DNA of 64,000 bases from Gammaproteobacteria bacterium. Its GTDB lineage: Bacteria > Pseudomonadota > Gammaproteobacteria > Eutrophobiales > Eutrophobiaceae. The notes beneath the pieces were generated by a model that saw only the letters and a program-made list of their open reading frames with translations, did no database searches and was not told the origin of the DNA. This document shows, piece by piece, positions 5,940-43,621 of the stretch. The stretch lies in NCBI GenBank assembly GCA_965204045.1, contig CBDBDW010000002.1, positions 2,754,610 to 2,818,609 on the forward strand, in the 5' to 3' direction. How positions within the stretch are numbered: the first letter of the stretch is position 1; each line of letters begins with the position of its first letter. A program made the translations under genes and the position numbers.

Positions 5940-7145
5940 CTAACTCCGGGTCCAGGCCCGCAGGGTCCTGACGGCCACATCGTTCTGGATTTCCACCGGA
6001 ACGTTTTGCGGCCCTGCCGGCAATGACCGGCTGTTCATCGCGATGTGGGCCAGGGACAGGCATTGCAGGGACAGGCCCAGGTCCATAATCTCGATGGGAT
6101 TGCCGTCGCCGGCGCTGAGGTTGATTGAGTTGGCCTCGCCCAGCAGGTAGATGGTCTTTCCGTTTTCAAGCTTGAATTGCCGTATATCCGGCATGATTTG
6201 ATTGGATTCAACTGACAGTTCGCGCAAGCCCGGCAGGTCAATCTCCGTCTCGAACATACCGGCATTACAGAGGACAGCGTTGTCTTTCAGCAGCGCCAGG
6301 TGGTCGCGGTTGAGAGCATTCGGCCTGCCGGTGACGGTGATAACGAAATCGCTGGAGGGCAACGCCTGTTCCAGATCGGCTGTCTGGTAGCCTTCAGTAT
6401 GCGCTTCCAGCCGCGAAATGGGATCGATATCAACGATGGTGATATGCGCGCCCAGGCCGCGCAGGGTGCGGGCGATCCCCTGGCCGCAGTAACCATAACC
6501 GACTACGGTTGTTCGCCTGCCGCCGATAAGCAGGTTGGAGCAGCGCATGATACCGTCAACCACTGACTGCCCGACGCCGCAGCGGTTTTCGATAATGCGT
6601 TTTGTACGGCTGTCGTTGATGATGATGGTAGGAAAGACGTGCGCGGCAACTTCTTCCCGGAGGCGAAAGCCCCCGGTGGTTGTCTCTTCCGTGGCGCCGA
6701 TGATCTTCGACTTCGCCGCGGAGAAGTCGGGGTTGGTCAGCGCCAGCATGTGTATGTCCGCTCCGTTATCAGCAACCAGGTCGGGCCCGGTTGCCAGCAC
6801 TCTTGCCGCGTAGTCCAGGTGCTGTTCATAGGTTTCATTCTTTTTGGCAAAGACCTGTATGCCGTATTCCGCCACCAGGGCCGCGGCCACCTCATCCTGG
6901 GCGGTGCCGGGACTGCCGGTAATGGCGATCTGCGCGCCGCCGGCGGTCAACGCCTCCAGCCATACGCCCGTCTTCGCCTCCACGTGCAGGCATATACCGA
7001 TACGCATGCCGGCAAAAGGTTTTGTCCGGGTAAAGTCTTCCTTGATCCCGCGCAATACCGGCATGCGCTCGCGTACCCAGTCCATGCGCTTCAGCCCTTG
7101 CCGGACCAGTCCGATGTCTTCTATCTCATAAGTAAAATCAGCCAT
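5940..7145 (-). CDS. Adenosylhomocysteinase-like NAD-dependent hydrolase (short/archaeal-type AHCY)
   Basis: AHCY signature blocks are present: KPFAGMRIGICLHVEAKT, GATEETTTGG, INDSRTKRIIENRCGVGQS and GYGYCGQG (the NAD-binding GxGxxG region). Confidence 0.7.
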   Translation of the reverse strand: MADFTYEIEDIGLVRQGLKRMDWVRERMPVLRGIKEDFTRTKPFAGMRIGICLHVEAKTGVWLEALTAGGAQIAITGSPGTAQDEVAAALVAEYGIQVFAKKNETYEQHLDYAARVLATGPDLVADNGADIHMLALTNPDFSAAKSKIIGATEETTTGGFRLREEVAAHVFPTIIINDSRTKRIIENRCGVGQSVVDGIMRCSNLLIGGRRTTVVGYGYCGQGIARTLRGLGAHITIVDIDPISRLEAHTEGYQTADLEQALPSSDFVITVTGRPNALNRDHLALLKDNAVLCNAGMFETEIDLPGLRELSVESNQIMPDIRQFKLENGKTIYLLGEANSINLSAGDGNPIEIMDLGLSLQCLSLAHIAMNSRSLPAGPQNVPVEIQNDVAVRTLRAWTRS

Positions 7146-7191: not shown

Positions 7192-8733
7192 TTACGCAGG
7201 AATGACGGATGTGGAGACGCGCCTGAAACCGGGTTTGCCGTTCTCGACGACAAAACGCGCCAGGTCAGAAACACCAGACTGCGCATCCCTGACGTCATGT
7301 ACGGCGCGCGCCGTTGCCTGCCACTCCTTTGCAGTGACTTCATGTAACAGGTAGCCGCGTTTATCCGGTTCATAGAACTTTATCTGCGGGTTTCGAACCA
7401 GGTTGTCAGCTATGGGTTTATCCATCTGGCCGGGCCAGTTGGCCGAAATGGAAGAGGCCACGAACTCCACTCCCGGAAAGCGGTCGGCTGACGCTATGGA
7501 CTGCATGCCGTCAATGGCCCAGAAAGAGTGCATATCACCGCTCAGGACCACTACCTGGCCGGTATTGCTCCGGTTTATCGCATCCACGACCCTGCTCCTG
7601 TTCGCCGGGTATCCATCCCAGGAACCCGCGAAATTATGCGACTTGCCGTCAATATCCAGGTGGAATGGTGAAAACACGCTGGAGGAGGCAATCACGTTCC
7701 ACGAGGCACTGTCAGCCCGGATATTATCCGCCAGCCAGTTCTCCTGCTCCTCTCCCAGCATGGTGCGTTCCTCAGCAAACATTTCAGGGCAACGTACCAC
7801 GTAGTTGCCGAATCCATGCAGGGACCTGTCACCGGAACATGGCAACTGCCTGGCGCGGAATTGGCGGGTGTCCAGCAGGCTGACCTGCATCAGGTCCCCG
7901 GCGTGAACAGTCCTCTGAAGCTCAAACCGGTCATCACCGGGGTTGCCGTAACCGCGGGCCGGCATGTGTTCATACCAGGCCTGGTAGGCGGCTGCCCTTA
8001 TCGCCATGGTGGCCGGATCAGTATCGATAACCGCATCGTGGTTATCCAGTGTGGTAAAGAATGGCAGTCCGGCGTGGGCGCGTTTAAGATTATCATCGGT
8101 TTTGTACAGCGCGTGCCGCCGCCGGAAACCGTCAAGCGTCAGCGGCATGACCTCAGTCTCGTGTCTCCTGAAAGTCACACCGTAGGATGTTTCATAGATA
8201 TAGTCGCCGAGATGGATCACGAAATCCGGGTCGTCTGCAATGATGTGGTCATAGGCGACGAAATAACCGTGTGTATAGTTCTGGCAGGATACCGTGACGA
8301 AACGGATTGCTTCGGTTTGGCTGTCGTGTGCGGGGAGGGTCTTTGTTCGGCCCGTTTCCGAAGTATGTGTGCCTGCGGAAAACCGGTACCAGTACTCCCG
8401 CCCCGGTTCCAGCCCCTGGATATCAACGTGTACCGAATGGGCAAGCCGGGGAGCAGCTTGTTGTTCGCCGCTCCTGATGCGTTGTCGCATATCTTCATCC
8501 TGGAACAATTCCCAGCGCACCGGTATGGCGTCCTGGCCGATCCCGCCATCGGCAGACAACGGTTCCGGCGCCAGCCGTGTCCACAACACTACCGAGTCCT
8601 GCGTCACGTCACCGGAGGCAACACCCAGGGTAAACGGATTTCCGGTGAACCTTGCCTCTGCGACCAGCGGTGTGGCAACCTGTGCGGCGGCTAGTCCCAC
8701 GGTTGTACTGATTAAGAAATCCCGCCTTTTCAT
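7192..8733 (-). CDS. phoD: Alkaline phosphatase D (PhoD family), Tat-secreted
   Basis: Twin-arginine signal MKRRDFLISTTVGLAAAQVATPLVAEA. PhoD N-domain and metallophos motifs are present (HLGDYIYE, RFVTVSCQNY). Confidence 0.8.
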   Translation of the reverse strand: MKRRDFLISTTVGLAAAQVATPLVAEARFTGNPFTLGVASGDVTQDSVVLWTRLAPEPLSADGGIGQDAIPVRWELFQDEDMRQRIRSGEQQAAPRLAHSVHVDIQGLEPGREYWYRFSAGTHTSETGRTKTLPAHDSQTEAIRFVTVSCQNYTHGYFVAYDHIIADDPDFVIHLGDYIYETSYGVTFRRHETEVMPLTLDGFRRRHALYKTDDNLKRAHAGLPFFTTLDNHDAVIDTDPATMAIRAAAYQAWYEHMPARGYGNPGDDRFELQRTVHAGDLMQVSLLDTRQFRARQLPCSGDRSLHGFGNYVVRCPEMFAEERTMLGEEQENWLADNIRADSASWNVIASSSVFSPFHLDIDGKSHNFAGSWDGYPANRSRVVDAINRSNTGQVVVLSGDMHSFWAIDGMQSIASADRFPGVEFVASSISANWPGQMDKPIADNLVRNPQIKFYEPDKRGYLLHEVTAKEWQATARAVHDVRDAQSGVSDLARFVVENGKPGFRRVSTSVIPA

Positions 8734-8812
8734 CGCGTTATCATAGCAGGTAGCGTTTTACAGGCGTATGATCCGGTCAAAATTCGAATGGAATAAGCTT
8801 GCCGGGAAACAG

Positions 8813-8878
8813 GTTAATACGAGTTTTACAGGCTGTTAATACGAAAAAAACAAGCCATTAATACGAATTTTACAAGGT
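8813..8878. promoter_or_regulatory. Three tandem 22-bp direct repeats (TTAATACGA core, starts at 8813, 8835 and 8857) in the divergent promoter region
   Basis: gTTAATACGAgTTTTACAGGct / gTTAATACGAaaaaaacaagcc / aTTAATACGAaTTTTACAAGGt. The repeats are in exact 22-bp register, end 8 bp before the ATG at 8886, and lie upstream of the divergent phoD. Confidence 0.5.
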
Positions 8879-8885
8879 AATAACT

Positions 8886-9362
8886 ATGCCGATAAACCAG
8901 TTGAGCGCGGCTGATATGGAAGCGGTGATGCGTGAATATTACGATGGTTGCAACGAGGCCGACCGGGAGAAGATAACGGGATGCTTCACGCCTGACGCGG
9001 TCCATTATTTTCCGCCGGGCATGTACGAGGGACCGTTTCGCGGCGCCGGGAAGATCGCGGAACGCTGGTGTGCGGCGGTGGAAAAGGGCGGTTCGTACTG
9101 GACTATTGACGCCTTGTTAATCGATGCGGACAAGGCCGAGGCGGTGATCGAGTGGAGCCATTTCAAGACGTACCAGAGGACTGTCCTGCGCGGCGCGGAA
9201 TGGGTCGTCTTCGACAGGGAAACAGGGTTGATGCAGGAGATCAGGGCCTATTATGCCTCACCGCAGGCAACGGACCTCAAGCGTCTTGAACTGGGGGGAT
9301 TTGACTATGAACAGCGCGGTTACGAAACGGTCTCTCCAAGGAGCCGATCAAGTCAACAGTAG
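8886..9362 (+). CDS. NTF2-like / SnoaL-like domain protein
   Basis: 158 aa. The pattern (MREYYDGCNEADREKITGCFTPDAVHYFPPG ... EWVVFD) is typical of SnoaL/ketosteroid-isomerase-like folds. Function unknown. Confidence 0.45.
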   Translation: MPINQLSAADMEAVMREYYDGCNEADREKITGCFTPDAVHYFPPGMYEGPFRGAGKIAERWCAAVEKGGSYWTIDALLIDADKAEAVIEWSHFKTYQRTVLRGAEWVVFDRETGLMQEIRAYYASPQATDLKRLELGGFDYEQRGYETVSPRSRSSQQ

Positions 9363-10496
9363 GTCGCTTACCTGTTCATGGCTGCGGACGATCCTGTAAG
9401 CCCCTGCTTCACACAGGCTGGCGGAAGTGCCGGCGCCGGTCAGGACAGCGATGGGTAGTACCCCTGCCGCGTGACTTGCCTGCATATCGATAACGCTGTC
9501 GCCAACATAGACCGCATCGCCCGGGGCGACGTCCATGCGTTCCAGGCACTTGTTCAGGCCCTCCGGGTCGGGTTTGCGTTTTTTCACGTCGTAGCCGGTA
9601 ATTACCGCATCGAACATCCCGGCAACCCCAAGGCCGTACAGCAGGTCCAGGGACCATTCCCCCGATCCGGTGACGATACCCAGCGCAAAGCCGGCTGTCT
9701 TAAGTCCGGACAGGGTTTCCACGACGCCCGTAAAAGCCCCGGCGCTGTCCTTGATGAGTTCGGGCCAGAGTTCCATGGCCCTGTTGTTCAGTTTTTTGAT
9801 CATGGCCGGCCGGTCTTCCGCTGTCTCCGGCACTACGTGGTCCCAGTAGGAAATACCGAGATTCAGTGTCTCATACATGCGTTCCCTGGATACTTCCAGT
9901 CCGAACTCCGCGCCGGTCCGTTTGGCAAGCTGGTAAAATGCGTCCACGGTATCGACCAGGGTGCCGTCCAGGTCGAACAGGACGGCGCTGGTTCGCACAG
10001 GCTTGATCAAACTCAGGGTAAGGCGGTCCCCGTCGTTGAGAGAGAAATGCCCGCGCAGTGACAGCGGGGCGATAACCTCTACCTGGTCATCCGGGTAACC
10101 GTCGACTTCGGGAAAGATAATGGCCCCGGTGACATGGTTGTTGACCTGGACCGGATAGCTTCGGGCATGACAGTTGCCGGCGTCAGGCGAGAGGATGCCG
10201 ATGCCGTCTCCATTTCTCAGGGATTGCCATCCGGCAACGGAATCCGCATCGTCCAGTTTCAGATTCAGCGTGCCGGGCCAGGTATCAATGCCGAGTTTAT
10301 CCAGGAATTGCTGCTTTGCGTGTTCCAGTTCGGTAAAACCCGCGGCCTGGCCTGTTCCGGTAACTACCCGGCCGGATAATTCCAATTCAATGATTCTCCC
10401 GTTGTAGTTCAGCGGCGCGATGAATGGCCGCGCGGATGCGCTGGTAAGTCCCGCAACGGCAGATATTGCCGGACATCGCCATATTGATATCCTCAT
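9348..10496 (-). CDS. Fusion protein: archaeal-type CTP-dependent riboflavin kinase domain (RibK/DUF120) plus HAD-family phosphatase domain
   Basis: N-terminal domain: [13 protein letters not shown]...[13 protein letters not shown]...[41 protein letters not shown], matching the GTLNLKL and IEIIAP..LRE.F.L.DGD blocks of MJ0056-type riboflavin kinase. C-terminal domain: HAD motifs [18 protein letters not shown] and [14 protein letters not shown]. The start is uncertain: the first ATG (10496) overlaps the upstream coxS-like gene by about 110 bp. Confidence 0.6.
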
Positions 10497-10851
10497 CGGA
10501 AGGCGAGGGGTTACCGGCGAGCAGGGCGACGGCCGACATGATTTGTCCCGACTGGCAATAACCGCACTGGGGCACCTGCAACTCAATCCAGGCCTGTTGA
10601 ACCGGATGGTAGCCGTCTCTGGCCAGGTGTTCGATGGTGGTGATTTTACTGTTGCCGATACTGCTTACCGGGAGCACACAGGAACGCATGGGTTTCCCGT
10701 CGACATGAACGGTGCAGGCCCCGCACTGGGCGATCCCGCAACCGAACTTGGTTCCTGTCAACCCGATCTCGTCCCGCAGCGCCCACAGAAGCGGCGTGTC
10801 CGCTTCGACGTCAACTTCATAAGGCTTGTCATTAACGTTGAGCTTAATCAT
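10387..10851 (-). CDS. (2Fe-2S)-binding small subunit of a molybdenum hydroxylase (CoxS/XdhC-small type), orphan
   Basis: [16 protein letters not shown] ... [12 protein letters not shown] ... CRCGTYQRI. These are the two Fe-S cluster cysteine motifs of CoxS-like proteins. No large or medium subunit is adjacent. Confidence 0.8.
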
Positions 10852-11052
10852 TTCTTTTCTGCACCGTGGTTACACGAGGAAGTGAACTTCGCACAATATA
10901 ATCCAGAAATTAAAAAATTTGTATTGTTTTTTACCTGTGTAAATCAGGAATAGCAGGTTTGTGGGAAACACTGGGAGTTGCAGGGTGGAGAAAACGTCGT
11001 TGCAATTCTTAAATTGTTGTCTGTTCTATTCTCTCCAATAGGCCCGCGCCCT

Positions 11053-11758
11053 TCACATGCTTTCCAGCTCTGATATGCGGAACCAATTTTCGTCTTCCTC
11101 TACTTTGACAGTCGGGGTACGCGGAATTGAACCATCGTCCAGCGCTATTGTATTCGGAAAACAAAACATCCAGTCGTCATAAGCTTTCCGGATTAACTCT
11201 TTATCAGTGTTAACGTCATAAAAATTTTTCAACCAATTCACAGCTTCCCCCTGATTCAATCAGTTCCAACTCAGGCCTCATTGATTTTCCCTTGAACAGC
11301 GCATTAGAAATATTACATACAATCACATCAAATTCATGCGCCATGTATCTGTCATTTGTAGTCTCGCTTTTACTGATATTGCTTCTTGATTTATGGCACT
11401 TGACCTTGAAATGAGGCGTCTGAACCTTAGTATATTTGCTTCCTGTCTTGAAACTTCCGCGAACTGCGCTTTTTGCTTCAACCTTCAGTCGTCTTCCAGT
11501 TCTTGAAAAGGTGACGCTGATGTCCTCATCATACTGATTTGATTGTGGATTTAAATTCAGTTTCTGAACATGCCATTCACGGGTGTGCAGCGTCTGTTTT
11601 AGTACTACAGCTGCAATGTATTCCGTAGCCTTGCCGCGGATCATTGGCAATACCTTTTGATCCTCAAGAATGTCAAGCAGGCTCTCTATGGGTATATTAT
11701 ATTTATCGCAATATTCTTTAATGCTGTGATATATCCTTGATTGTTCATCAGTATTCAT
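11053..11758 (-). pseudogene. Candidate restriction endonuclease partner of the Dam-like methyltransferase, apparently frameshifted into two ORFs (11216..11758 and 11053..11259)
   Basis: The two ORFs are in different frames and overlap by 44 bp around a G5 tract (cagggggaagc). The gene sits immediately downstream of the methyltransferase and overlaps its stop by 4 bp, in an AT-rich island. No recognisable nuclease motif was found, so the role is assigned from context. Confidence 0.35.
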
Positions 11759-12657
11759 AACGCCGCCAACTGTTGTGAGGGCTGTTCAGGTAGGCAGGGG
11801 ATCTCAAGATGATTTTCGTAGTTACGAATAAATACCTCTTTACCCTTGTATCGTTTGTTTTTATAGCCATCTTCCAGTTTAAGTCCATTCCTCTGGTCAT
11901 CTGTGCGATTTATAGTGTAATTCCATTCCTGAGTGTCTATTGAGCCAGTCCAATCATATAAATTCCAGATGTCAGGATGATTGTCGTAAGTGATCAAAAA
12001 TCTCAGTCTGTCAGAATGACGCCGTAAACAATCTGATAACCTTAAGTGATCTTCATAGTCAAAATTACACCTATAAAATTTCTTCTGGTCCGCTCCGTAA
12101 TATGGCGGGTCGATAAACAGGAAAAAACCATCGACCAGATTGTCTATAAGATTTTCAAAGTCCTGATATAACAGGTCAACTCCTTGCAGGCGGTCAGAAA
12201 CAGTCCGTAAGTGGGGGGGCCAGTTTTCAGGTTGCATGGAGTATTTAGTACCGTAGCCCCAATAACAATTTTCGTCTTTCATTATGCCACTGTATGAAGT
12301 GCGGTTCAGGTAGTACCATCTGAATGCCCGTTCCAAATCGTTACCCGGGTAAAAATCATTTTTGTAAAAATGATGTAATTCCTTTTTTGCAGGAATCCCA
12401 TTCAACAATTCGATTAATCCTTCAACGTTGTCTCTGATTTGGATATAGCAATTCATCAGCTCTTCATCCAGATCATTGAGAATTGCGTATGTTTGGCGCT
12501 TCTGGGCGAAAAAAATCGAAGCGCCACCGGCAAAGGGTTCACAGTAATGAGTATGTTCGGGGATATAGCGGAGAATTAGGTGACGAGCGTAAAATTTGCC
12601 TCCTGGATACCGAAAAGGCGAGTTCGTTTTATTCGATCTGGGCAATAAAATACTCAT
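11755..12657 (-). CDS. DNA adenine methyltransferase (Dam-like, N6-adenine methyltransferase of the D12 class)
   Basis: YPGGKFYARHLI...CEPFAGGASIFF (motif I) and LFIDPPY (DPPY motif IV). AT-rich relative to the flanks. Start taken at the internal ATG (MSILLPRSNK...). Confidence 0.85.
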   Translation of the reverse strand: MSILLPRSNKTNSPFRYPGGKFYARHLILRYIPEHTHYCEPFAGGASIFFAQKRQTYAILNDLDEELMNCYIQIRDNVEGLIELLNGIPAKKELHHFYKNDFYPGNDLERAFRWYYLNRTSYSGIMKDENCYWGYGTKYSMQPENWPPHLRTVSDRLQGVDLLYQDFENLIDNLVDGFFLFIDPPYYGADQKKFYRCNFDYEDHLRLSDCLRRHSDRLRFLITYDNHPDIWNLYDWTGSIDTQEWNYTINRTDDQRNGLKLEDGYKNKRYKGKEVFIRNYENHLEIPCLPEQPSQQLAAL

Positions 12658-12910
12658 GTTGCTGTATTCCAATCCGGTAACGGAAAATACTGCGGATACA
12701 CTGCATATAGTAATACACAGTCGCTTGATGCACAATATTTATTGTTATCAGCCTGATCGAGATGAGGATGGGATTAAAGTATGAGTGTTGGCCCGGGTCA
12801 CTACATTCAAGCGCCGGAATCGTAGAGCCGACCGCGAGGCTCACGGCAATCTCACTTGCCCGGAGGAAATTTCCGCCATGTGTGGGCTGTGCTTGCTATC
12901 ATTCCGATCC

Positions 12911-16158: not shown

Positions 16159-16198
16159 CGTATGACCAGGCAGTTCCCGCCAGCGCAAGAATGCGGTT

Positions 16199-16250
16199 GG
16201 GGACAGACCCCCGCTGACGACATGCGGGGGCATGCTTCAAATCTGTCCCC
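16199..16250. repeat. Long copy of the nested palindromic REP/MITE-like element
   Basis: ggggacagacccccgctgacgacatgcgggggcatgcttcaaatctgtcccc. About 80% identical to the copies at 3615 and 55319. Its internal ATG (16222) is the likely start of the downstream lipoprotein gene. Confidence 0.7.
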
Positions 16251-17397
16251 TCTGAAGATTTCGGTCATCCTGGCAGTCCTTGCATTGCCCGGGTGTACTG
16301 AAAGGAGCGCAGGAATAAGCGATGAACCGATATCTGTCGGTAACGTATTGCGCGGCGACCCTGCCCGATCTTTTGCCCAAGTGGACCGGCCGAGAGAGTT
16401 CCTGTTTCCCGCCGACCATGGTCCCCATGATGAGTACCGCACCGAATGGTGGTATTTCACCGGCAATATCAACGATGGCAAGGAACACCGTTTCGGTTAC
16501 CAGTTCACCTTTTTTCGTTTCCGGCCAAGGATCGAGGAAACCACCAGTCCTTCGCGCTGGCGGACTGAAAATTTCTACATGGCCCACTTGGCTTTGACTG
16601 ACATCAACAATGAGAAGATCCATGCTTTCGAACGCTTCAGTCGCGGCGCCGCCGGTCTCGCCGGCGCGAGTTCGAACGGGTTCCATGTCTGGCTGGACGA
16701 CTGGTCTGCAGAGGCAACTTCACGGGACACATTCCCACTGCGTATCCGCGCCCGGCAAGACCGGATCGCCCTGGACCTTATCCTGCAACACGGCAAGGCC
16801 GTCGTCCTGCACGGTGAAGACGGTGTCAGCGTAAAGAACAGCGACCCGGTCAATGCCTCCTATTACTACTCTTATACCCGCATCCCAACGGAGGGTAGCA
16901 TCAGCGTAGGGGATACGACCTACACGGTACGCGGCAACAGCTGGATGGACCGGGAGTGGAGCAGCAGCGCCCTGGGCAGGGAACAGGTCGGCTGGGACTG
17001 GTTCGCGCTGCAACTGTCGAACGAGCACGAACTGATGTACTACCGTTTCCGCCGCGCCGACAACGCGGCAGACCGGTTCAGCTACGGCGCGCTTGTGCTG
17101 CCCGACGGTCGCATGTCCACGCTGGGCTTCGACGAGGTGGAGCTGGATATACTGGAAACCTGGCCGAGCCCGGGAAGCGGCGTGGTCTACCCGTCCGCCT
17201 GGCGCTTGCGGGCGCCGGAATATGGACTCGACCTCAACATCCGGCCGGCGCTGGCCGACCAGGAACTGGATCTCTCGTTCCGTTACTGGGAAGGCGCGGT
17301 GGAATTCGATGGCGCTTTCGGCGCAAACGACGTAAACGGCCGCGGCTACGTGGAGCTTACTGGTTACGGTACAACGTCCGCGCCGCGGGCTCAGTAG
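16222..17397 (+). CDS. AttH-like / CrtC-like (hydroxyneurosporene synthase fold) lipoprotein, third component of the ABC module
   Basis: Lipoprotein signal with lipobox (ISVILAVLALPGC). FPADHGPHDEYRTEWWYFTGN matches the AttH/CrtC family. Gene order ATPase-permease-AttH mirrors attE-attF/G-attH. Confidence 0.65.
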   Translation: MRGHASNLSPLKISVILAVLALPGCTERSAGISDEPISVGNVLRGDPARSFAQVDRPREFLFPADHGPHDEYRTEWWYFTGNINDGKEHRFGYQFTFFRFRPRIEETTSPSRWRTENFYMAHLALTDINNEKIHAFERFSRGAAGLAGASSNGFHVWLDDWSAEATSRDTFPLRIRARQDRIALDLILQHGKAVVLHGEDGVSVKNSDPVNASYYYSYTRIPTEGSISVGDTTYTVRGNSWMDREWSSSALGREQVGWDWFALQLSNEHELMYYRFRRADNAADRFSYGALVLPDGRMSTLGFDEVELDILETWPSPGSGVVYPSAWRLRAPEYGLDLNIRPALADQELDLSFRYWEGAVEFDGAFGANDVNGRGYVELTGYGTTSAPRAQ

Positions 17398-23497: not shown

Positions 23498-23536
23498 ACA
23501 GGTATTACACTGATGCCCAACGATCGCGATCCGGGG

Positions 23537-25747
23537 ATGGATCGCAGGATCACCCGCCGCGATTTTGGAGTAAATAATGTGAGATCGATTCCCGTGGTCG
23601 TTTTCCTGCTGACGGCTATCTGCGGAATGCATGGATGTGGCGAAGATGAAGGGCGTAGCCCATTCACGGGCAATACGGAAAAAACAACATCCCTATCCAC
23701 TGGCGTTGCGGATGCACAAGCAGATTTGCCCGGAGCGGTAAGCCGTGAACGTGCATTGAATGCCTCCGATGATGTGGAGAACTGGCTGTTGCATGGACGT
23801 ACCTATGACGAGCAGCGTTTCAGTCCGCTCGCTCAAATTACCCGGCATAATATCAAGCGTCTGGGTGTGGCCTGGGCGCTTGACATACCCAGTAGTGACG
23901 GTCTTGTGGCGACGCCGATTGTTGTTGACGGCACCATATATTTAAGTGCCCCCTTCAGCGTCATTTATGCTGTTGATGCCGCATCCGGCAATCTTCTCTG
24001 GTCTTATGATCCGCAAGTGAAATTGAACCTGAGTGTATTTGGATCCTGGCTTTCCCGTTGGAACCGGGGTGTGACTGTATGGAATGGAAAAGTGATTGTC
24101 GGTACCGGTGATTGCAGGTTGATCGCTGTCGATGCAGGAAAGGGAACCCCCGTCTGGGAAGTTGAAACCTGCGACAGCAGTATCGGCTATGCCATTACCG
24201 GTGCGCCAAGGGTGGGTGATGGGAAGGTTTTTATCGGTAACGCGGGAGCTGATTGGGGCCTGCGCGGCTATGTCACGGCCTATGACGCGGATTCCGGTGA
24301 CTTTGTATGGCGTTTTTATACGGTGCCCCGTGACACTGTTACCGACCAGGAAGCACAAGATTTTGAAACGACCGCGGAGACCGGGAGTGGGGAGGCAGGG
24401 CGCCAGTACGGCGGCGGTGGCTCGGTATGGGATTCTATGACCTATGATCAGGAATTGAACCGGTTATACCTGGGAACGGACAGTGTTTTTCTCGAGTATA
24501 TCAACATCACGGACCCCGAAGAGTTCGATGACCTGCTGACCAATGCCATTGTTGCCCTGGATGCTGCGACAGGCGAATACCTGTGGCATTACCAGACTGT
24601 CCCGGCAGGCAAGTTGGACTACAACGCGGCTGCACATATGATCCTTGCCGATATGGAGATTGCAGGTGAGAGCCGAAAAGTCCTGATGCAGGCGCCAAAA
24701 AATGGATTCTTTTATGTCATTGATCGCAGCAATGGCGAGTTGCTGTCAGCGGACAACTATACGACGGTGACCTGGGCCAGTCATATTGACCTGGAAACAG
24801 GCAAGCCTGTTCTCAATACTGCTGCTCCATCCGTGGACCCCGAAACTGGCAAGCCGCTTGTCTTCCCTTATGGATGGGGTGGCCACAACTGGCACCCCAT
24901 GAGTTACAGTCTCGACACCGGCCTGGTCTATATCCCGGTGCTGGACGTCGCAGCAGTTGTTCAACAATCACCCGCATCGGGCGTAGAGGAAGAACCGCTG
25001 GGCCAGAGCGCCTATGGTGCTGGTGGAGGCAAGGTGGCGGAAGACGAAATGCTGGGCAAGCTTGTGGCCTGGGACCCGCTGACCCAGTCTGAACGATGGT
25101 CGCAGGAACATAAATTACCGTGGAACGGGGGTGTGCTATCGACCGCGGGCGGACTTGTATTCCAGGGAAATGCCGAAGGCAGGTTCAATGCCTTTGCCGC
25201 GGACGATGGTGAATTACTATGGACCATGAAGACCGGCTCGGCGATTCAGGCGCCACCGGTGACCGTTCGTATTAATGGGGAACAACTGGTCATCGTCCCG
25301 GTGGGGTGGGGCGGCCCGCAACGATTATGGATTCCGCGTCACAATGCACTGCCCGAATCAAAAGGCAATAGTCGTTTGATCGCATTCAAGCTGGACGGCG
25401 ACGCAACCCTGCCGGCACAGACCAGCCATTCCATGCCTGTTCCCGAGCCGCCGGAACAAAGCGGCACAGCCGGGTTCATCGCCCGTGGTGAAAAATTGTA
25501 TGGCCAAACCGGTTGTGTCTGGTGCCATGGTGTCGATGTCGAGGGCGGCAGCGACTCGGTCCCGAATTTGCGTTATCTCACGAAGGAGAAACATGCGGCA
25601 TGGGACGCCATCGTCCTGGGTGGCGCCTATCAGCATAAGGGCATGCTTTCCTACAAGGATGCGCTCAGTGCCGAAGATTCAGCCGCGATACATGCCTATG
25701 TGATTGACAGGGCCTGGAAGGCGTATAACGAACAATCTACACAATGA
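23537..25747 (+). CDS. PQQ-dependent dehydrogenase with C-terminal cytochrome c domain (quinohemoprotein alcohol dehydrogenase type)
   Basis: Eight-bladed PQQ propeller repeats (W-rich motifs, DxxTG). C-terminal haem-binding CxxCH (GCVWCHGVD). N-terminal signal sequence. Start is ambiguous: ATG at 23537 or GTG at 23579. Confidence 0.8.
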   Translation: MDRRITRRDFGVNNVRSIPVVVFLLTAICGMHGCGEDEGRSPFTGNTEKTTSLSTGVADAQADLPGAVSRERALNASDDVENWLLHGRTYDEQRFSPLAQITRHNIKRLGVAWALDIPSSDGLVATPIVVDGTIYLSAPFSVIYAVDAASGNLLWSYDPQVKLNLSVFGSWLSRWNRGVTVWNGKVIVGTGDCRLIAVDAGKGTPVWEVETCDSSIGYAITGAPRVGDGKVFIGNAGADWGLRGYVTAYDADSGDFVWRFYTVPRDTVTDQEAQDFETTAETGSGEAGRQYGGGGSVWDSMTYDQELNRLYLGTDSVFLEYINITDPEEFDDLLTNAIVALDAATGEYLWHYQTVPAGKLDYNAAAHMILADMEIAGESRKVLMQAPKNGFFYVIDRSNGELLSADNYTTVTWASHIDLETGKPVLNTAAPSVDPETGKPLVFPYGWGGHNWHPMSYSLDTGLVYIPVLDVAAVVQQSPASGVEEEPLGQSAYGAGGGKVAEDEMLGKLVAWDPLTQSERWSQEHKLPWNGGVLSTAGGLVFQGNAEGRFNAFAADDGELLWTMKTGSAIQAPPVTVRINGEQLVIVPVGWGGPQRLWIPRHNALPESKGNSRLIAFKLDGDATLPAQTSHSMPVPEPPEQSGTAGFIARGEKLYGQTGCVWCHGVDVEGGSDSVPNLRYLTKEKHAAWDAIVLGGAYQHKGMLSYKDALSAEDSAAIHAYVIDRAWKAYNEQSTQ

Positions 25748-25763
25748 TCCTGGTTCAGAAGAA

Positions 25764-25865
25764 ATGAATACTGAAATGCCCTTGTGGCCACAGGAAGGTA
25801 TTCTTTCGGGTGTGTCAGAAAACCGGTATAAGAGATTATATACTGGTGATATAGTGAAAAACTGA
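25764..25865 (+). pseudogene. 33-codon remnant of a cupin gene (partial duplicate of 29994..30461)
   Basis: It reads MNTEMPLWPQEGILSGVSENRYKRLYTGDIVKN*. About 85% nucleotide identity to 30133..30230 (…MNTDLPLWPQEDILSGVSEHRYKTLYSGDID…). Confidence 0.5.
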
Positions 25866-25869
25866 TTTC

Positions 25870-27531
25870 TTGTTCAACCAAGGTATATCCATGATGAAAT
25901 TCCGTATTTGCAATATGTTGCTTTTGATCACAGTGACGGTATGTACGCCTGCGGCTTCCTTCGGAAATTCCGAATATGAAGTAGATATTCTTGATACCAG
26001 GCAACTCGGCCATGTTCGACACATTGTTGATTCAGCGCGCCAACTACCGGGAGACTGGCGTTACATGGAACCACGCGCGATGCTTACCTACGACGCCTAC
26101 CAGTTCCAGTTGGCGTTTATGTCCTATGCCCTGGCCATGGTGCAAATAAACTACACACCGGCCTATAAAGAGTTATACCGGGAGGCACAACTAAGCCTGG
26201 TTGAAAAAATGATGCGTAATGATGTCTGGGTACCCACGTGGTTGCCAATCATTGAAATGGACCCTTACAAGAGCTACCTGGAAGCGGGTAAGGAATGGCG
26301 TGATCCTGTTCGTGAAAAAAATATCATGTACAGCGGCCATCTCCTGCAAATGATCGGCCTGTATAAAGTGCTGTACAAGGATTTTCGTTTCGATGAACCG
26401 GGTTCCATTGTGTTCGAATTACCCGGCCTGAACGGCTTCAAAAACACCTATGACCATCACTCACTTGCAACACTTGTCCATGATCAGTTTGTGGATAGTG
26501 ATTACGTAGGCGTTGATTGTGAACCCAATGACGTTTTTGCGGAGTGTAACCAGCACCCCATACTTGGCCTTATCCACTATGACTGGATGCATGGCAGTAA
26601 ACTTTCGGAGGTGCGTCATGCCTTCTGGGAGAAAGCGGAAGAACTGAATTATATCGCGCCCCATTCATCCAGAACCATGTATTTTTATCGCATGAAGGAA
26701 CAGGAACGCGTGGACAGGCCCTTTGCGTGGGCCGATGGCTGGAATGCGATGATGATGAACGCATGGAATACTGATGTGGTGAGCAAAATCTACCCAGTCC
26801 AGCGTGATGCGGAAAAGGCGGCGTTAATGGATACCAGTCCCGAGCGTTGGAGTCGCAGATGGTCGACGCCGATAGCGTGTTTTGACTTTGGCTTTCTGGC
26901 CGCCTACGCCGCGGAAATGGGTGATCGTGACACAGTATCTGCGATGCTTGATTATGCTGATCGCCATTTCAATCCTCAATGGGTTGATGGCAGGTACTTC
27001 TATCCCCGACGTGATATAACCGAAGCTGCATTTTTCGATGGCTTACGTTCTGAAAAGGAGTGGATCGTCCCGGAAGAGAAGTATGGCCAGCACGAAATGA
27101 CTGTCCTGATTGGGAATGTAATGCTGCCGCTGGCAAGACTTAATCCTGGATACGGGTTGTGGCGACTTTATGACAGGGACAGTGCGCAGAATTGGCTAAC
27201 TGGTGATACGCCGGAAGTTGTGAATGTAAAGTATCCCGAAGTCCTGATCAGTCATGCAGTTTACAGTCGTGAACATAATCGATTGAGTGTCCATATCAAA
27301 CCGGGAACCGCGTATAGGGGCATGTCCGATATCGGTGTCATAAATCTTGATGCCGGAACGTACTATAGTGTGATGTTTGATGGGAAAGAAGTTTTCCGGC
27401 TTCATCAGGGTAAGGTGGTCCCCGGAGAAAGCGGCAAGGTGGCGGGCGCATGGGATGCAAGTGACTCCACCCTGACTATTTCCCTGCCAATCGATAAGGG
27501 GCACGCACTGGACATTGTATCTATGATGTGA
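25870..27531 (+). CDS. Secreted protein of the linalool dehydratase/isomerase (LDI) family, with a C-terminal extension
   Basis: Signal peptide. The blocks YQFQLAFMSYALAMV, KNIMYSGHLLQMIGLYKVL and VGVDCEPNDVFAECNQHPILGLIHYDWMHG align with conserved blocks of Castellaniella LDI recalled from memory ([44 protein letters not shown]). This was not checked against a database. Confidence 0.5.
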   Translation: MFNQGISMMKFRICNMLLLITVTVCTPAASFGNSEYEVDILDTRQLGHVRHIVDSARQLPGDWRYMEPRAMLTYDAYQFQLAFMSYALAMVQINYTPAYKELYREAQLSLVEKMMRNDVWVPTWLPIIEMDPYKSYLEAGKEWRDPVREKNIMYSGHLLQMIGLYKVLYKDFRFDEPGSIVFELPGLNGFKNTYDHHSLATLVHDQFVDSDYVGVDCEPNDVFAECNQHPILGLIHYDWMHGSKLSEVRHAFWEKAEELNYIAPHSSRTMYFYRMKEQERVDRPFAWADGWNAMMMNAWNTDVVSKIYPVQRDAEKAALMDTSPERWSRRWSTPIACFDFGFLAAYAAEMGDRDTVSAMLDYADRHFNPQWVDGRYFYPRRDITEAAFFDGLRSEKEWIVPEEKYGQHEMTVLIGNVMLPLARLNPGYGLWRLYDRDSAQNWLTGDTPEVVNVKYPEVLISHAVYSREHNRLSVHIKPGTAYRGMSDIGVINLDAGTYYSVMFDGKEVFRLHQGKVVPGESGKVAGAWDASDSTLTISLPIDKGHALDIVSMM

Positions 27532-37823: not shown

Positions 37824-39038
37824 TCAATGCCAGAGCGTGCGCAATAACTTAGTGACCTCGGCCAGGCTTTCCAAGTTGTGTACGGGGAGGAAGTAATCCA
37901 GGAAGGGCAGGGCTGTTTGCATCCCTTTACACAGGGGTTGGTAGCTAGTGTTACCCAGCAACGGGTTCAACCAGATGATCTTGTTGACGCGCCGCCGCAG
38001 TTGTTCCATCTCGTTACGCATCAGGTCGGCGTCACCCTGGTCCCAGCCGTCACTCAGGATCACGGCGATGGTGTGGGAACTCAGCATCTGGTGGGCTTGT
38101 TGATCATTCAACTCGCGCAGGCAACCGCCGATATTCGTGCCCCCGGCCCAGTCATGCACCTGGTCCGACATCTGTTTAATCACCTCATCGATATCCCTGC
38201 GGTTCAGGTAAGGCGTAATGCTGGTCATGCGGGTCGAGAACACCGCGACTTCGATATTTGAGATATTCGCGCCCATGGCGCAGATGAGTTGAATCAGGAA
38301 CCGGCTGTAGCGCTCCATCGAACCGCTCACGTCGCAGAACAGGATGAGCTTGTTCTTCTTCAGCCGGTGGGTTTTATAAGCCAGTTTCAGGCAGTACTCC
38401 CCGTAAGGCATGCTGCGCCGGAATATCTTCCTGATATCAAGCTGCTGTCCCGATTTTGCCGGGCTGAAGCGCCGGCTCTTGCGATTCGCCAGGATGGCAA
38501 TCAATTCGGCAATGATCTTGCGGGCCTCATCCAGTTCCTTGTCAGTCATCCCGTCTATGTCTTTTTTCACCAGTAATTCATGGCTTGAATAACCGGTTTG
38601 TTCCGGATCGCCCTCATGTTCCTCCGCAGCACCCGGACCTTCCCCATCTGCGGGCTGGAACTGCTTTTGTAACTGCCGGGCTTCACCCGCGCCGTCGCCG
38701 TTTTCCTCTTCGCCGGCGGGGCGCTCGTCTTCAAATGGAATATCCTGGTTTTGCCAGTACTCACGGAACAGGAGGGCGAACAATTCCATGTCTTCCCTGT
38801 TGATAATCAGGGTCGCCAGGGCAGCCGCATAAAAATCTTCGTAATTGGCTATATCGATGTACAGGAGGCTGCGACTTAAATCGATCAGGTTGGCGGGATT
38901 GACGTCAATGCCTGCATCATGCAGTTTTCTACCGAAGCGGATGATGTGGGTGATGAACGGAAGCTCTTCCCGGCCGTTGTCCGTGCCGTCATTCCGGCCC
39001 AGGCCGGAACCCGGTAATGCAGGAGCATTAATCGCCAT
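37824..39038 (-). CDS. VWA-domain protein, CoxE-like (Mo-hydroxylase maturation)
   Basis: von Willebrand A motif with MIDAS residues (LILFCDVSGSMERYS). About 400 aa. It lies immediately downstream of a MoxR ATPase, as in coxD-coxE pairs. Confidence 0.8.
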   Translation of the reverse strand: MAINAPALPGSGLGRNDGTDNGREELPFITHIIRFGRKLHDAGIDVNPANLIDLSRSLLYIDIANYEDFYAAALATLIINREDMELFALLFREYWQNQDIPFEDERPAGEEENGDGAGEARQLQKQFQPADGEGPGAAEEHEGDPEQTGYSSHELLVKKDIDGMTDKELDEARKIIAELIAILANRKSRRFSPAKSGQQLDIRKIFRRSMPYGEYCLKLAYKTHRLKKNKLILFCDVSGSMERYSRFLIQLICAMGANISNIEVAVFSTRMTSITPYLNRRDIDEVIKQMSDQVHDWAGGTNIGGCLRELNDQQAHQMLSSHTIAVILSDGWDQGDADLMRNEMEQLRRRVNKIIWLNPLLGNTSYQPLCKGMQTALPFLDYFLPVHNLESLAEVTKLLRTLWH

Positions 39039-39041
39039 TAC

Positions 39042-39965
39042 TCAGTTGATGCTGCTCTGAGCGCCTAACGTCGGACCGCCTTTGAAATTCTTGGTGAGAG
39101 CCAGGGCCTTCTGCAGATTGCTACCGATGAGTTTTTCCTGATCTTGCTTATATTTAAGTATGCAACTTAATGTAGTTTCTATAATATCCTGCTCCAGTTC
39201 CTCAATACCCAGCGAGAGTAAGGCATTGGCCCAGTCAAGGGTCTCGGCGATACCGGGCCGCTTGTAGAAATCCTCCCGGCGTAACAACTCCATGAATTTG
39301 CACACCTGGATTGACAGCGTTTCCTTGATTTTCGGCACTTTTGTCAGGACGATGTTGAGCTCTTTTTCCAGGGTCGGGTAGTCGATCCAGTGATAAAGGC
39401 AACGGCGCTTGAGCGCATCGTGCATCTCCCTGGTCCGGTTGGAGGTCAATACCACGAACGGCGGTTGTTCCGCCTTGATGGTGCCTACTTCGGGTATGGT
39501 AATCTGGAAATCAGACAGCACTTCCAGCAGGAATGCTTCGAACTCGTCATCAGAGCGGTCAATTTCATCAATCAGCAGGACGGGACGTTTGCCGGGGGAC
39601 TGGATGGCCTGCAGCAGCGGTCTTTTCAGCAGGAACTGCTCATCGAAGATATTGGCGCCTATCTCCTTCTTGTCCACACCGCGGGCTTCCTGGAGCCGCA
39701 CCTCAAGCATTTGCCGCAGGTAATTCCATTCATACAATGCCAGGTTGGTATCAAGGCCTTCGTAACACTGCAGCCGGATGAGATCGGTATCCAGGCTTTT
39801 TGCCAGGACTTTGGCCACTTCGGTCTTGCCGACTCCCGGTTCCCCTTCCAGGTAAAGGGGTTTTCCCAGTGTCGTGGCCAGGTAAACAGTGGTCGCCAGG
39901 TGGCGGTCGGTGATATAGCCTTGCGTGGCGAATTTTTGCTCTATCTCTTCGATTGACTGAAACAT
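39042..39965 (-). CDS. MoxR-family AAA ATPase, CoxD-like
   Basis: Walker A LEGEPGVGKT, Walker B LLIDEIDRSDDEFEAFLLEVL, and the MoxR C-terminal region. Confidence 0.85.
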   Translation of the reverse strand: MFQSIEEIEQKFATQGYITDRHLATTVYLATTLGKPLYLEGEPGVGKTEVAKVLAKSLDTDLIRLQCYEGLDTNLALYEWNYLRQMLEVRLQEARGVDKKEIGANIFDEQFLLKRPLLQAIQSPGKRPVLLIDEIDRSDDEFEAFLLEVLSDFQITIPEVGTIKAEQPPFVVLTSNRTREMHDALKRRCLYHWIDYPTLEKELNIVLTKVPKIKETLSIQVCKFMELLRREDFYKRPGIAETLDWANALLSLGIEELEQDIIETTLSCILKYKQDQEKLIGSNLQKALALTKNFKGGPTLGAQSSIN

Positions 39966-40032
39966 TTTCCTGGGCCTGTTATGGTTGAATCCGGTATTTC
40001 AGGTACATGATTGCGCTGGATACGGTCCGGAA

Positions 40033-41028
40033 TTATAGAGGGCTTCCCTTGATATAACCACCGTTACCCATGCGCATGATGTCTTCCCGGGTGACGGGAA
40101 TACCCGCCAGCAGCCTCTCCAGCACCCAGTCAAAACCGTTCACCGCCGGAGAACGGGCGCATCCGGGCATGACTACTACCGGATGGCCGCCGGTAAATTC
40201 ACCCAGCGCCAGCAGGTTGCCCGGTTCCACCGGCATTCCCAGGTGTGTGATCCCGCCACCTGCCGTTTCGATTGCGACCGGAATTACATCACGGCGGTCG
40301 GCGGTGGCGCTGGCGCCGGTGATCAGGATCATTTCACTCCCGCCTTTCAACAGTTTTTCAAGTGCTTCAGCAATGGCGCCCTCTTCGTGCTCACAGCGAA
40401 TTTCCGAACTTACCCGGTTGTCCAGGCGTTGCAACCGGTTATCGAGTACGTCGCGGGTTTTGTCCAGGACAGCTTCTTTCATGCCCGGATAAAATGTCTG
40501 GATAAAGCCGATGTCCAGCCTGTTATAGCCGTTGATGTCAAGCAGGGGAGGGAGCCCGGACTGTATTTTTTCTATGCCTGACACACTCGCCTTATCCACA
40601 CCGTAGGGTATGATTTTCACCGTGGCGACTGCCTGTCCCTTGGTGACCGTTGAATACGGCGGCAATACCGCGAGGGTTATGGCTTCATCCGTCATGTTGA
40701 TACTGTCCAGGCGCTCGATGTCGTAAACCAGCAGTCCGGAGCTTTCCGCCATAATATTATTTCTGCCGGTACGGGGGCGTTGCGGGCGCACATTTTTCCC
40801 TGCGATGAAAACGGCTATGCGCCGCGCCGTTTCGTTTTCATCCAGGTCTGTGGCCTCAAGACGCGCGATGACCACCGATTCACACCCGGCGGCAGCAAGC
40901 AGCCTCACTTGCTCTTCAGACAGAACAGTGCCCTTTTTCAGGTTGATATCCTGGTATTTCACGGAATGGGCGAGAATGCCTCCTTCCGCCTCCGCAACCG
41001 GCATGCGACCGAATTTCATTGTTCTCAA
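40033..41028 (-). CDS. Molybdopterin-binding protein with MoeA/MoCF-biosynthesis-like domain
   Basis: C-terminal ILITGASATADRRDVIPVAIETAGG...GMPVEPGNLLALGEF...VVVMPGCARSPAVNGFDWVL resembles the MoeA/MogA MoCF domain (SGG.S.G..D ... PGKP ... LPGNP.S). Confidence 0.5.
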   Translation of the reverse strand: MRTMKFGRMPVAEAEGGILAHSVKYQDINLKKGTVLSEEQVRLLAAAGCESVVIARLEATDLDENETARRIAVFIAGKNVRPQRPRTGRNNIMAESSGLLVYDIERLDSINMTDEAITLAVLPPYSTVTKGQAVATVKIIPYGVDKASVSGIEKIQSGLPPLLDINGYNRLDIGFIQTFYPGMKEAVLDKTRDVLDNRLQRLDNRVSSEIRCEHEEGAIAEALEKLLKGGSEMILITGASATADRRDVIPVAIETAGGGITHLGMPVEPGNLLALGEFTGGHPVVVMPGCARSPAVNGFDWVLERLLAGIPVTREDIMRMGNGGYIKGSPL

Positions 41029-43525: not shown

Positions 43526-43621
43526 TCTGCTCTGCGCCGGTGATGCGTTAATCATGTGCTTAATTGTCAATCATATTATTAACGATTATACTCAGGAAAT
43601 TCTTAATTCCCGATTCGGATT

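Follow-up and report, generated by a model that had tools for sequence, protein, structure and literature searches.

The window analysed here is a 64,000-nt stretch of contig CBDBDW010000002.1 from a gammaproteobacterium, and our subject is a pair of adjoining minus-strand genes within it. The downstream gene (9348–10385, minus strand, TTG start) encodes a 345-amino acid fusion of a putative cytidine triphosphate (CTP)-type riboflavin kinase (RK) with a HAD phosphatase, referred to as RK-HAD herein; the upstream gene (10387–10851, minus strand) encodes a 154-amino acid CoxS/IorA-type small subunit of the 2×[2Fe-2S] kind with the Pfam domains Fer2 and Fer2_2. The initial annotation had treated 9348–10851 as a single feature. 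That span covers both genes, and the fusion it described lies within 9348–10385. We place the limits of RK-HAD there because the homologues are 345 amino acids long and the TTG start, one nucleotide past the CoxS-like stop, is conserved; the PF01982 and HAD_2 matches in Pfam agree with these limits. A 412-amino acid TTG open reading frame (ORF) at 9348–10586 (minus strand) was rejected as an artefact, as the homologues have 345 residues and the start is conserved in five lineages. Sequence comparison showed exactly 1 nt between the CoxS-like stop and the RK-HAD start in these five lineages, in the variants TGA-A-TTG, TGA-T-TTG, TAA-C-TTG and TGA-G-TTG. A Shine-Dalgarno-like GGGAGA, read from the sequence at 10395–10400 (minus strand), lies 9 nt ahead of the TTG, still within the 3′ end of the CoxS-like gene, and a GGAG-type element ∼9 nt 5′ of the TTG is kept in relatives as GGAG, GGGG or GGGAG. 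The two genes abut without overlap and are predicted to be translationally coupled. Of the proposal that the fusion gene begins inside, or directly after, the CoxS-like gene, only the second half stands. At its 3′ end, RK-HAD shares 15 nt with a convergent SnoaL_2 gene (8886–9362). A promoter and terminator scan of 8700–11300 gave nothing above chance.

The N-terminal domain (residues 1–126; 10008–10385, minus strand) matched PF01982 (CTP-dep_RFKase) over residues 3–120 and profile positions 1–119 of 121, with an E-value of 4e-25 and 88.6 bits against a cut-off of 25. This profile search upholds the riboflavin-kinase identity first proposed for the domain; Pfam found no Flavokinase (PF01687) match in the RK-HAD protein. 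When the N-terminal 128 residues were searched against PDB sequences, archaeal riboflavin kinases were the sole matches, with MJ0056 (2P3M, E 2.9e-11) and Thermoplasma RbkR (3CTA, E 3.9e-9) both matched over the whole domain. Conservation was read from an alignment of 92 full-length relatives, down to 41% identity. Within the kinase domain, G5, G10, F17, P37-G38-T39, N41, W53, C72, P92 and Y97 are invariant and E103 and R111 nearly so; the GTLN and E-V-I-A-P...L-R blocks that had been pointed out in this domain are present, and invariant or nearly so in the family.

We mapped the residues of taRbkR (PMC5397151) onto RK-HAD through HMMER alignments to the PDB sequences. The CTP site of taRbkR is built from G-x-G-x-G, T-L-N and L-R (PMC5397151), and the modelled Mg ligands of MmpRibK, Gly14, Asn41 and Glu104 (bioRxiv 10.1101/2021.04.15.440061), align with G10/G12, N41 and E103. 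The CTP- and metal-site residues mapped from these two enzymes are kept in RK-HAD as G10, G12, T39-L40-N41, E103 and L110-R111; the third glycine of the Gly-x-Gly-x-Gly loop is A14 in this clade and Gly in most relatives. Six residues contact flavin mononucleotide (FMN) in mjRibK/taRbkR, namely Y/F109, Y115, F165, P185, Y190 and E195 (PMC5397151), and four of these contacts appear to be kept, as F17, P92, Y97 and E103. The bacterial domain also has branch-specific residues, the invariant W53, C72 and A74, and its score with the NCBIfam RbkR model (NF010762, 69.1 bits) does not reach the cut-off of 279. These comparisons suggest that the kinase domain of RK-HAD forms a branch distinct from characterised RibK.

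The C-terminal domain (residues 131–345; 9351–9995, minus strand) was assigned to the HAD-IA phosphatases by Pfam, motifs, fold and a family hidden Markov model (HMM). HAD_2 matched residues 131–310 (E 3.9e-35, 122 bits), and Hydrolase, HAD and Hydrolase_like matched as well. The catalytic motifs are complete: FDLDGT (D138, D140), IVTGS (T239), RKPDPEG (K271) and GDSVID (D296, D300), so that where motifs I to III had been claimed, motifs I–IV are found. Among the 92 relatives, F137-D138-x-D140-G-T-L, K271-P272, G295-D296, D300 and W181 are invariant, and the cap residue W207 is nearly invariant. An AlphaFold2 model built on the same alignment was a confident, rigid two-domain body (pLDDT 92.8, pTM 0.91), in which the helices of a helical cap span residues 147–230 between motifs I and II. 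Foldseek matches in the PDB were all single-domain HAD-IA proteins (the pyrophosphatase BT2127, AlnB, CbbY and β-PGM; TM ∼0.73–0.84 on the target); this search found no two-domain match and did not discriminate among substrates. With a family-specific HAD HMM, fused copies with the kinase first scored 250–345 bits, generic HADs at most 129 bits, and several copies with the HAD domain first 100–188 bits. The fused HAD domain thus appears to be a subfamily of its own, seen only in fusions, whose nearest relatives are Gph/PpaX-type enzymes.

The fusion had been flagged as an oddity among bacteria, and it proved to be anything but a one-off. A word-indexed search found the RK-HAD architecture in at least 120 public clusters at 90% identity, all with PF01982 plus HAD, from Gammaproteobacteria, Betaproteobacteria and Anaerolineae metagenome-assembled genomes (MAGs). 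Any names that these clusters carry read 'HAD-IA family hydrolase', 'phosphoglycolate phosphatase' or 'DUF120 domain-containing protein'. When the kinase domain was run exhaustively by phmmer against 1.84 billion representatives at 50% identity, 985 matched at E≤1e-3, and 269 of these reached E≤1e-10, archaeal RibK/RbkR counted in. To our knowledge, CTP-dependent riboflavin kinases have been described as archaea-specific, with three characterised enzymes, all archaeal. The bacterial RK-bearing relatives include Gamma- and Betaproteobacteria, Anaerolineae and Bacillota MAGs, and thus do not match an archaea-restricted distribution. The literature that we searched treats RibK as archaeal only and describes neither the RK-HAD fusion nor a link to UbiX. 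RK-HAD is thus one member of a large branch of the CTP-type riboflavin-kinase family that is found in bacteria and carries no functional annotation, and its architecture and context appear to be new.

A metagenome scan with an alignment of the kinase domain alone yielded 80 loci which, together with loci from exact-protein look-ups, formed 51 lineages at 85% identity. RK-HAD is the architecture of 31 of these 51, and the reverse order, HAD-RK, was also seen (P0339, P0372 and others). One Bacillota MAG (P0399, MBI2874808.1) carries a fusion of a histidine phosphatase with RK, whose histidine-phosphatase domain aligns full-length with PDB 9MMH (E 4e-15); the two have their closest structural relative, 4IJ5/4IJ6, in common. 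9MMH is the histidine-family phosphatase of Aquifex aeolicus that acts on 5-amino-6-ribitylamino-uracil 5′-phosphate (ARPP) and hydrolyses FMN too (PMC12051542), which makes P0399 a candidate for a dedicated ARPP/FMN phosphatase-kinase. Further architectures were RK-PNPOx, PNPOx-RK, VOC-RK and MFS-RK, as well as fusions in both orders to the type-2, FMN-dependent isopentenyl diphosphate isomerase (IDI-2; P0362 and P0429, TIGR02151 at 348 and 302 bits, cut-off 281). UbiX-RK fusions (P0167, P0168, P0169, P0171; L116:212-1198; L178, L180) fall into four clusters at 49–100% identity from the independent sources JGI, ENA and Logan, and for that reason are not assembly artefacts.

Upon inspection of the surrounding genes, we found that the UbiX-RK fusions lie in clusters resembling phenylphosphate synthase/carboxylase loci, as in L180 (UbiD, Phenyl_P_gamma, two more UbiD genes, HAD_2, UbiX-RK) and L178 (PEP-utilizers/PPDK_N, UbiX-RK, LpdD_chaperone); the UbiX and UbiD identities exceed the NCBIfam cut-offs. 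The separate HAD_2 protein of L180 was considered as a member of the fused-HAD subfamily and rejected, as it scored 49.8 bits against at least 250 for fused copies. RK-UbiX-UbiD and UbiD-RK-HAD operons occur in L159, L084, L097, L100–L103 and L110. Counted over the 51 lineages, the neighbours within 5 kb include UbiD in 7, UbiX in 4, PNPOx-like A in 7, PNPOx-like B in 6 and CoxS in 7. At least one of UbiD, UbiX, PNPOx-like or CoxS/L/M lies within 5 kb in 21 of 51 lineages; among the 26 lineages whose flanks reach at least 4 kb, the number is 15. The same tblastn found such neighbours at none of 79 generic-HAD control loci (1.31 Mb), which came from a genome-contig scan dominated by the generic motif FD[LVI]DGTL[VL]D and have an RK domain in L004 only. 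For the RK-HAD lineages the enrichment gives a Fisher p of 7.8e-9, a post hoc value because the neighbour families were chosen after their recurrence had been seen, and one for which the control loci were drawn from another collection than the RK loci. The contrast of 21/51 with 0/79 is large, the post hoc choice notwithstanding.

The partners of RK appear, by family assignment, to be consumers or binders of FMN (UbiX as substrate; IDI-2 and PNPOx as cofactor), a plausible riboflavin importer (MFS), or phosphatases. Such a set of partners is what one would expect if a genuine riboflavin kinase that forms FMN had been co-opted at sites of high FMN demand. We also considered methanopterin and F420 biosynthesis as a possible connection, and found no support in the neighbourhoods, save for weak F420-PPOX-like matches of the PNPOx-type partners. 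Two other groups of loci were seen. In L098, L099, L104 and L107, RK-PNPOx-like fusions lie directly 3′ of coxM-coxS-coxL-type genes and are flanked by PaaK-like coenzyme A (CoA) ligases; these clusters look like the 4-hydroxybenzoyl-CoA-reductase type. In L004, L125, L129, L149, L153 and L170, a stand-alone RK lies between genes of the fumarylacetoacetate-hydrolase and mandelate-racemase/enolase families, with no obvious flavin link.

The CoxS-like protein carries both cysteine motifs, C-x4-C-x2-C...C and C-x2-C...C-x-C, as read from the translation, and its best NCBIfam matches all lie under their equivalog cut-offs. Its pairing with RK-HAD recurs in L175, L001, L002, L095 and L181; identities of the relatives are 97% (L175–L177), 86% (L001), 74% (L002), 73% (L095) and 68% (L181). 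No MoCoBD large-subunit gene lies within ∼25 kb of the CoxS-like gene in the window, or within 8–10 kb of the pair in L175, L001 and L095. In L181 the order is CN-hydrolase, amidohydrolase, CobW, UbiD, CoxD-type AAA, CoxE-type VWA, IorB-type MoCoBD, Fer2_2, RK-HAD and SnoaL_2, with UbiD ∼5 kb from the pair and with 175 nt between the Fer2_2 gene and the divergent gene for the 738-amino acid IorB-type protein. CoxD/CoxE are also present in L002, where a gene for a 747-amino acid MoCoBD protein lies 3.5 kb from the pair.

The window holds much of the same gene set elsewhere. A catabolic island at 37824–50327 comprises, by Pfam, CoxE, CoxD, a MoCF_biosynth-like gene, UbiD, CobW, amidohydrolase, CN-hydrolase, CoxM-CoxS-CoxL and a GntR regulator. 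Its UbiD-family decarboxylase (41174–42493, plus strand) is not the UbiD of ubiquinone synthesis, and its CoxM-CoxS-CoxL operon (45919–49595, plus strand) is complete and has its own small subunit. When the L181 proteins were searched against the window by tblastn, orthologues were found of CoxE (37827–39029, 80% identity), CoxD (39045–39965, 88%), UbiD (41174–42487, 84%), CobW (42500–43519, 67%), the amidohydrolase (43619–45010, 83%) and the CN-hydrolase (45032–45874, 79%); the IorB-type MoCoBD protein of L181 had no match within the 64 kb. Since L181 keeps the genes adjacent and the window holds the orthologues 27 kb off, the CoxS-like/RK-HAD pair appears to have ancestrally adjoined an island of UbiD and molybdenum-hydroxylase genes. 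The description of the CoxS-like gene as an orphan is fair for this window, as no MoCoBD gene lies within ∼25 kb and the IorB-type subunit is missing from the 64 kb. The idea that it is a conserved stand-alone ferredoxin fits the window, L175, L001 and L095, and fails for L181 and L002, where IorB-type MoCoBD and CoxD/CoxE genes lie 0.2–3.5 kb away. Most simply, the CoxS-like protein would belong, as small subunit, to a molybdenum hydroxylase of the IorAB type from whose large subunit it has been separated in this lineage. More speculatively, a protein that normally docks on a flavin subunit may here reduce the flavin bound by RK-HAD.

Taken together, these data lead us to propose, with about even confidence, that RK-HAD combines a riboflavin kinase with a phosphatase for ribityl 5′-phosphates (ARPP/FMN) and feeds FMN to flavin-demanding catabolic enzymes. 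The kinase domain would convert riboflavin and CTP to FMN and CDP, with the Gly-rich loop and T39-L40-N41 holding the triphosphate and metal and with E103 and Y97 contacting the ribityl flavin. The HAD-IA domain, with Asp138 as predicted nucleophile and an α-helical cap that bears two conserved Trp residues, most likely takes the 5′-phosphate off a ribityl compound of the same pathway. ARPP would be the primary candidate and FMN a likely second substrate. ARPP needs to be dephosphorylated before lumazine synthase can act, long a 'missing' step of riboflavin synthesis. We read the HAD domain as a ribityl-5′-phosphate phosphatase because the phosphatase partners of RK appear to fall into exactly the two superfamilies known for ARPP/FMN phosphatases, HAD and histidine phosphatase. 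ARPP phosphatases of both kinds, the HAD enzymes (E. coli YigB is one) and the histidine-family enzyme of Aquifex aeolicus, also hydrolyse FMN (PMC12051542). RK-HAD would be translated in a fixed ratio with the CoxS/IorA-type 2×[2Fe-2S] protein, and the pair would by evolutionary origin be part of a catabolic island with many enzymes of the flavin, prenyl-flavin and molybdenum kinds (UbiD, IorB/CoxL, CoxD/E), its role being to raise the FMN supply when the island enzymes are made. The earlier assignment of both domains is right, and so, in our view, is the idea that they act on one pathway. Domain identities, conserved catalytic residues, the coupling of the two genes, the size of the family, its fusion partners and the enrichment of neighbours are what the analysis shows directly; which substrates the two domains use, whether CTP is the donor and whether the fusion serves FMN supply are what we infer from conservation, fusions and neighbourhoods.

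Several results weigh against this proposal. Two of the flavin contacts are replaced, Y115 by Ala23, preceded by W/H, and F165 by a non-aromatic residue (Asn here) beside the invariant C72, although the loop alignment is uncertain. The RibK equivalog of NCBIfam (NF040694, ribK_Meth) scored 55.7 bits and its cut-off of 168 was not reached; likewise, the phosphoglycolate phosphatase model TIGR01449 (Gph) gave 110.3 bits for the HAD domain, where 180 would be needed. Neither rib genes nor an FMN riboswitch accompany the loci, so that a specific tie of the HAD domain to ARPP, as opposed to FMN, is lacking: RibD/H/E/B/F genes were found neither in 0.6 Mb of RK loci nor in the window (so there is no RibF in the 64 kb), using E. 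coli sequences as queries with a RibD positive-control match in L039, and a whole-window Rfam scan found no FMN riboswitch or any other family. In the window, UbiD and the molybdenum-enzyme genes lie 27–39 kb from the pair (UbiD 31 kb) and are not adjacent to it. Lastly, the proposal gives no reason for the 2Fe-2S partner, always coupled to RK-HAD, and the neighbour enrichment carries the post hoc caveat given above.

A wider version of this proposal, which we regard as less likely than not, would have bacteria hold a large, overlooked branch of CTP-type riboflavin kinases that serve as FMN feeders, most clearly for UbiX (UbiX-RK) and UbiD, and that come with dedicated ARPP/FMN phosphatases. 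In the clade of the window, the CoxS-like protein would then dock on the fusion, much as CoxS does on the FAD subunit, and reduce nascent FMN to the FMNH2 that UbiX needs. If the assignment holds, it would give hundreds of proteins that now bear the labels "HAD-IA hydrolase" or "DUF120" a named function, provide candidates for dedicated ARPP/FMN phosphatases, and reveal an unnoticed accessory step, local FMN production, in the prenyl-FMN/UbiD systems of anaerobic aromatic degradation and biocatalysis.

Among other explanations, the one that fares best, though we consider it unlikely, is that the HAD domain is an FMN hydrolase opposing the kinase, so that the fusion sets the riboflavin:FMN ratio rather than feeding a pathway. 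It draws on Arabidopsis AtFMN/FHy, which is said to pair the same two activities and is the only characterised fusion of HAD with riboflavin kinase that we know of. About 30% of HAD phosphatases, YigB included, hydrolyse FMN, as does the Aquifex enzyme (PMC12051542). In addition, rib biosynthesis genes are lacking near the RK loci, and a stacked isoalloxazine ring would fit well with the two conserved Trp residues of the cap. A hydrolase would, however, oppose supply in operons that consume FMN (UbiX, IDI-2, PNPOx). Since known enzymes do not separate ARPP and FMN activities, this explanation differs from FMN feeding mainly in physiological direction.

Somewhat less probable is that bacterial PF01982 acts on a related ribityl compound, such as a prenylated or otherwise modified riboflavin or the deazaflavin Fo, or that it is an FMN/CTP sensor for the phosphatase, as in archaeal RbkR. 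The two changed flavin contacts out of six, the branch-specific Trp53, Cys72 and Ala74, the score under the RibK equivalog cut-off and the weak matches of PNPOx-like partners to F420-type PPOX models would all be accommodated, and a sensor role has a precedent in RbkR (PMC5397151). Yet a pure sensor would have no need of the invariant or nearly invariant residues seen at the nucleotide, metal and ribityl-phosphate sites, and the UbiX, IDI-2 and MFS partners point to FMN or riboflavin itself.

The UbiX-RK fusions, together with the RK-UbiX-UbiD and UbiD-RK-HAD operons, allow a narrower explanation that we think improbable: the kinase makes FMN strictly for UbiX, and the HAD domain either makes dimethylallyl phosphate from dimethylallyl diphosphate (DMAPP) or removes phosphate from aryl phosphates in the manner of the HAD-type delta subunit of phenylphosphate carboxylase. 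The fusion of DMAPP-forming IDI-2 to RK, the pyrophosphatase BT2127 among the closest solved HADs, and the separate HAD_2 gene between the UbiD genes and UbiX-RK in L180 all lend themselves to this idea. On the other hand, UbiX lies within 5 kb of none of the 31 RK-HAD lineages, the L180 HAD falls outside the fused subfamily (49.8 bits versus ≥250), the histidine-phosphatase partner points to ribityl or ribosyl phosphomonoesters, and the window has no UbiX, its UbiD lying 31 kb from the pair.

We give very little credence to RK-HAD being an ordinary phosphoglycolate-type phosphatase with a vestigial N-terminal domain and an accidental CoxS-like neighbour. The database names 'HAD-IA family hydrolase' and 'phosphoglycolate phosphatase' and the best NCBIfam match, PGP_bact, would suggest as much, but that match scores 110 under a cut-off of 180, the RK catalytic residues are invariant or nearly so over 92 sequences down to 41% identity, the HAD domain looks like a subfamily of its own, seen only fused, and the stop-N-start coupling is kept over five lineages.

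The surroundings of the pair bear on the remaining explanation, which concerns a restriction-modification (RM) island. The block of Fer2_2, RK-HAD, convergent SnoaL_2, PhoD and adenosylhomocysteinase genes is kept in relatives L175–L177, L001, L002 and L095. By Pfam, the NTF2-like SnoaL_2 gene (8886–9362, plus strand) is kept in L001, L002, L175 and L181, and a PhoD-like phosphatase with a twin-arginine (Tat)-type N-terminus (7192–8733, minus strand; PhoD plus PhoD_N) in L001, L002, L095 and L175. The last gene of the block, kept in L001, L002 and L175, encodes a short-type adenosylhomocysteinase (5940–7145, minus strand; NF004005 at 406.7 bits, against a cut-off of 275). The PhoD and adenosylhomocysteinase genes are followed by one for a TonB-dependent receptor in L001 and L175. 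A role of the PhoD and adenosylhomocysteinase neighbours in periplasmic scavenging of flavins or nucleotides is conceivable. The SnoaL_2 protein gave a sub-threshold Lumazine_bd_2 match (E 0.004, 18.2 bits versus 22.1), probably a within-clan cross-hit.

Directly upstream of the CoxS-like gene lies the inserted RM island (10907–12892, limits from alignment), which has a low GC content (40% versus 58%) and is absent from L175–L177. It encodes a Dam-family N6-adenine methyltransferase (11755–12735, minus strand) and a 180-amino acid ORF (11216–11758, minus strand) with no Pfam or NCBIfam match, possibly a restriction endonuclease. L175–L177 lack RM genes; there, a spacer of ∼148 nt is all that separates the CoxS-like gene from a divergent ABC-transporter gene, the one that in the window lies beyond the island. 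The window and L175–L177 are collinear on both sides of the island (blastn, 91–95% identity), and the ∼1,986-nt island stands in place of ∼73 nt of spacer. The island is a simple insertion into the spacer that displaced nothing, because the RM-free L175–L177 have the same arrangement and only spacer was replaced. The suggestion of the initial annotation that it interrupted a coxS-coxL/coxM operon and displaced the molybdenum and FAD partner subunits, for which one could cite that the island abuts the CoxS-like gene and that more distant relatives have an IorB-type subunit beside the pair, is refuted by the 97%-identical, RM-free L175–L177, which are equally without partners, and we attach next to no probability to it. 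The separation of the pair from the molybdenum/UbiD island instead goes back to an older rearrangement or loss. A CTGGATTATATTGT motif at 10893–10906, ∼45 nt upstream of the ATG of the CoxS-like (Fer2_2) gene, is kept despite the insertion. The island is co-directional with the CoxS-like/RK-HAD operon, and because it replaces the region upstream of the operon's retained TATATT-like motif, it may alter transcription of the operon.

Farther along the window, the stretches 16162–17397, 23513–27531 and 32140–37125 hold a CrtC/AttH-like lipocalin gene beside a MacB-type ABC transporter, a pyrroloquinoline quinone (PQQ) dehydrogenase that includes a cytochrome c domain, a member of the linalool dehydratase/isomerase family and several proteins with RTX repeats.

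Among known systems, archaeal RibK (MJ0056; PDB 2P3M, 2VBV), MmpRibK and Thermoplasma RbkR (3CTA, 5TRD) have in common with RK-HAD the homologous PF01982 domain, the CTP/Mg-site residues and apparently four of six flavin contacts. RK-HAD differs in being bacterial and fused to a HAD domain, whereas the archaeal proteins stand alone or carry a winged helix-turn-helix domain; identity is ∼32%, two flavin contacts appear to be replaced, and W53, C72 and A74 are specific to the branch. The host presumably also has RibF, so that RK-HAD would be an auxiliary rather than the sole kinase. With YigB and other HAD-type ARPP phosphatases, RK-HAD shares the HAD-IA fold and motifs but no specific sequence relationship, there being no YigB model among the 25 best of 44 NCBIfam matches. 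Its cap residues W181 and W207 recall the aromatics of the base pocket in the Aquifex histidine-family phosphatase, F93, W107 and W169.

The CoxS-like protein resembles CoxS/IorA in its Fer2 and Fer2_2 domains, both four-Cys motifs, its length of ∼154 amino acids and its place beside IorB-type MoCoBD and CoxD/CoxE genes in L181 and L002; unlike CoxS/IorA, its gene is always co-translated with RK-HAD, by the gene arrangement, and has no nearby large subunit in the window, L175, L001 and L095. The literature searched describes no kinase as a component of the UbiX/UbiD prenyl-FMN system. RK resembles the accessory genes of that system, such as the LpdD-type chaperones, in being fused to UbiX or lying in UbiX/UbiD operons, and would act upstream of them by supplying FMN. 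The closest functional analogue is Arabidopsis AtFMN/FHy, reportedly described by Sandoval and Roje in 2005 as a bifunctional riboflavin kinase/FMN hydrolase. Like RK-HAD, it joins a HAD-type phosphatase and a riboflavin kinase in one polypeptide, but its kinase has an ATP-dependent PTAN-type fold unrelated to PF01982. Its order, HAD domain N-terminal and kinase C-terminal, is the reverse of the main order here, though HAD-RK exists as well. On these comparisons, the likeness of RK-HAD to AtFMN/FHy appears to reflect convergence rather than membership of one family.

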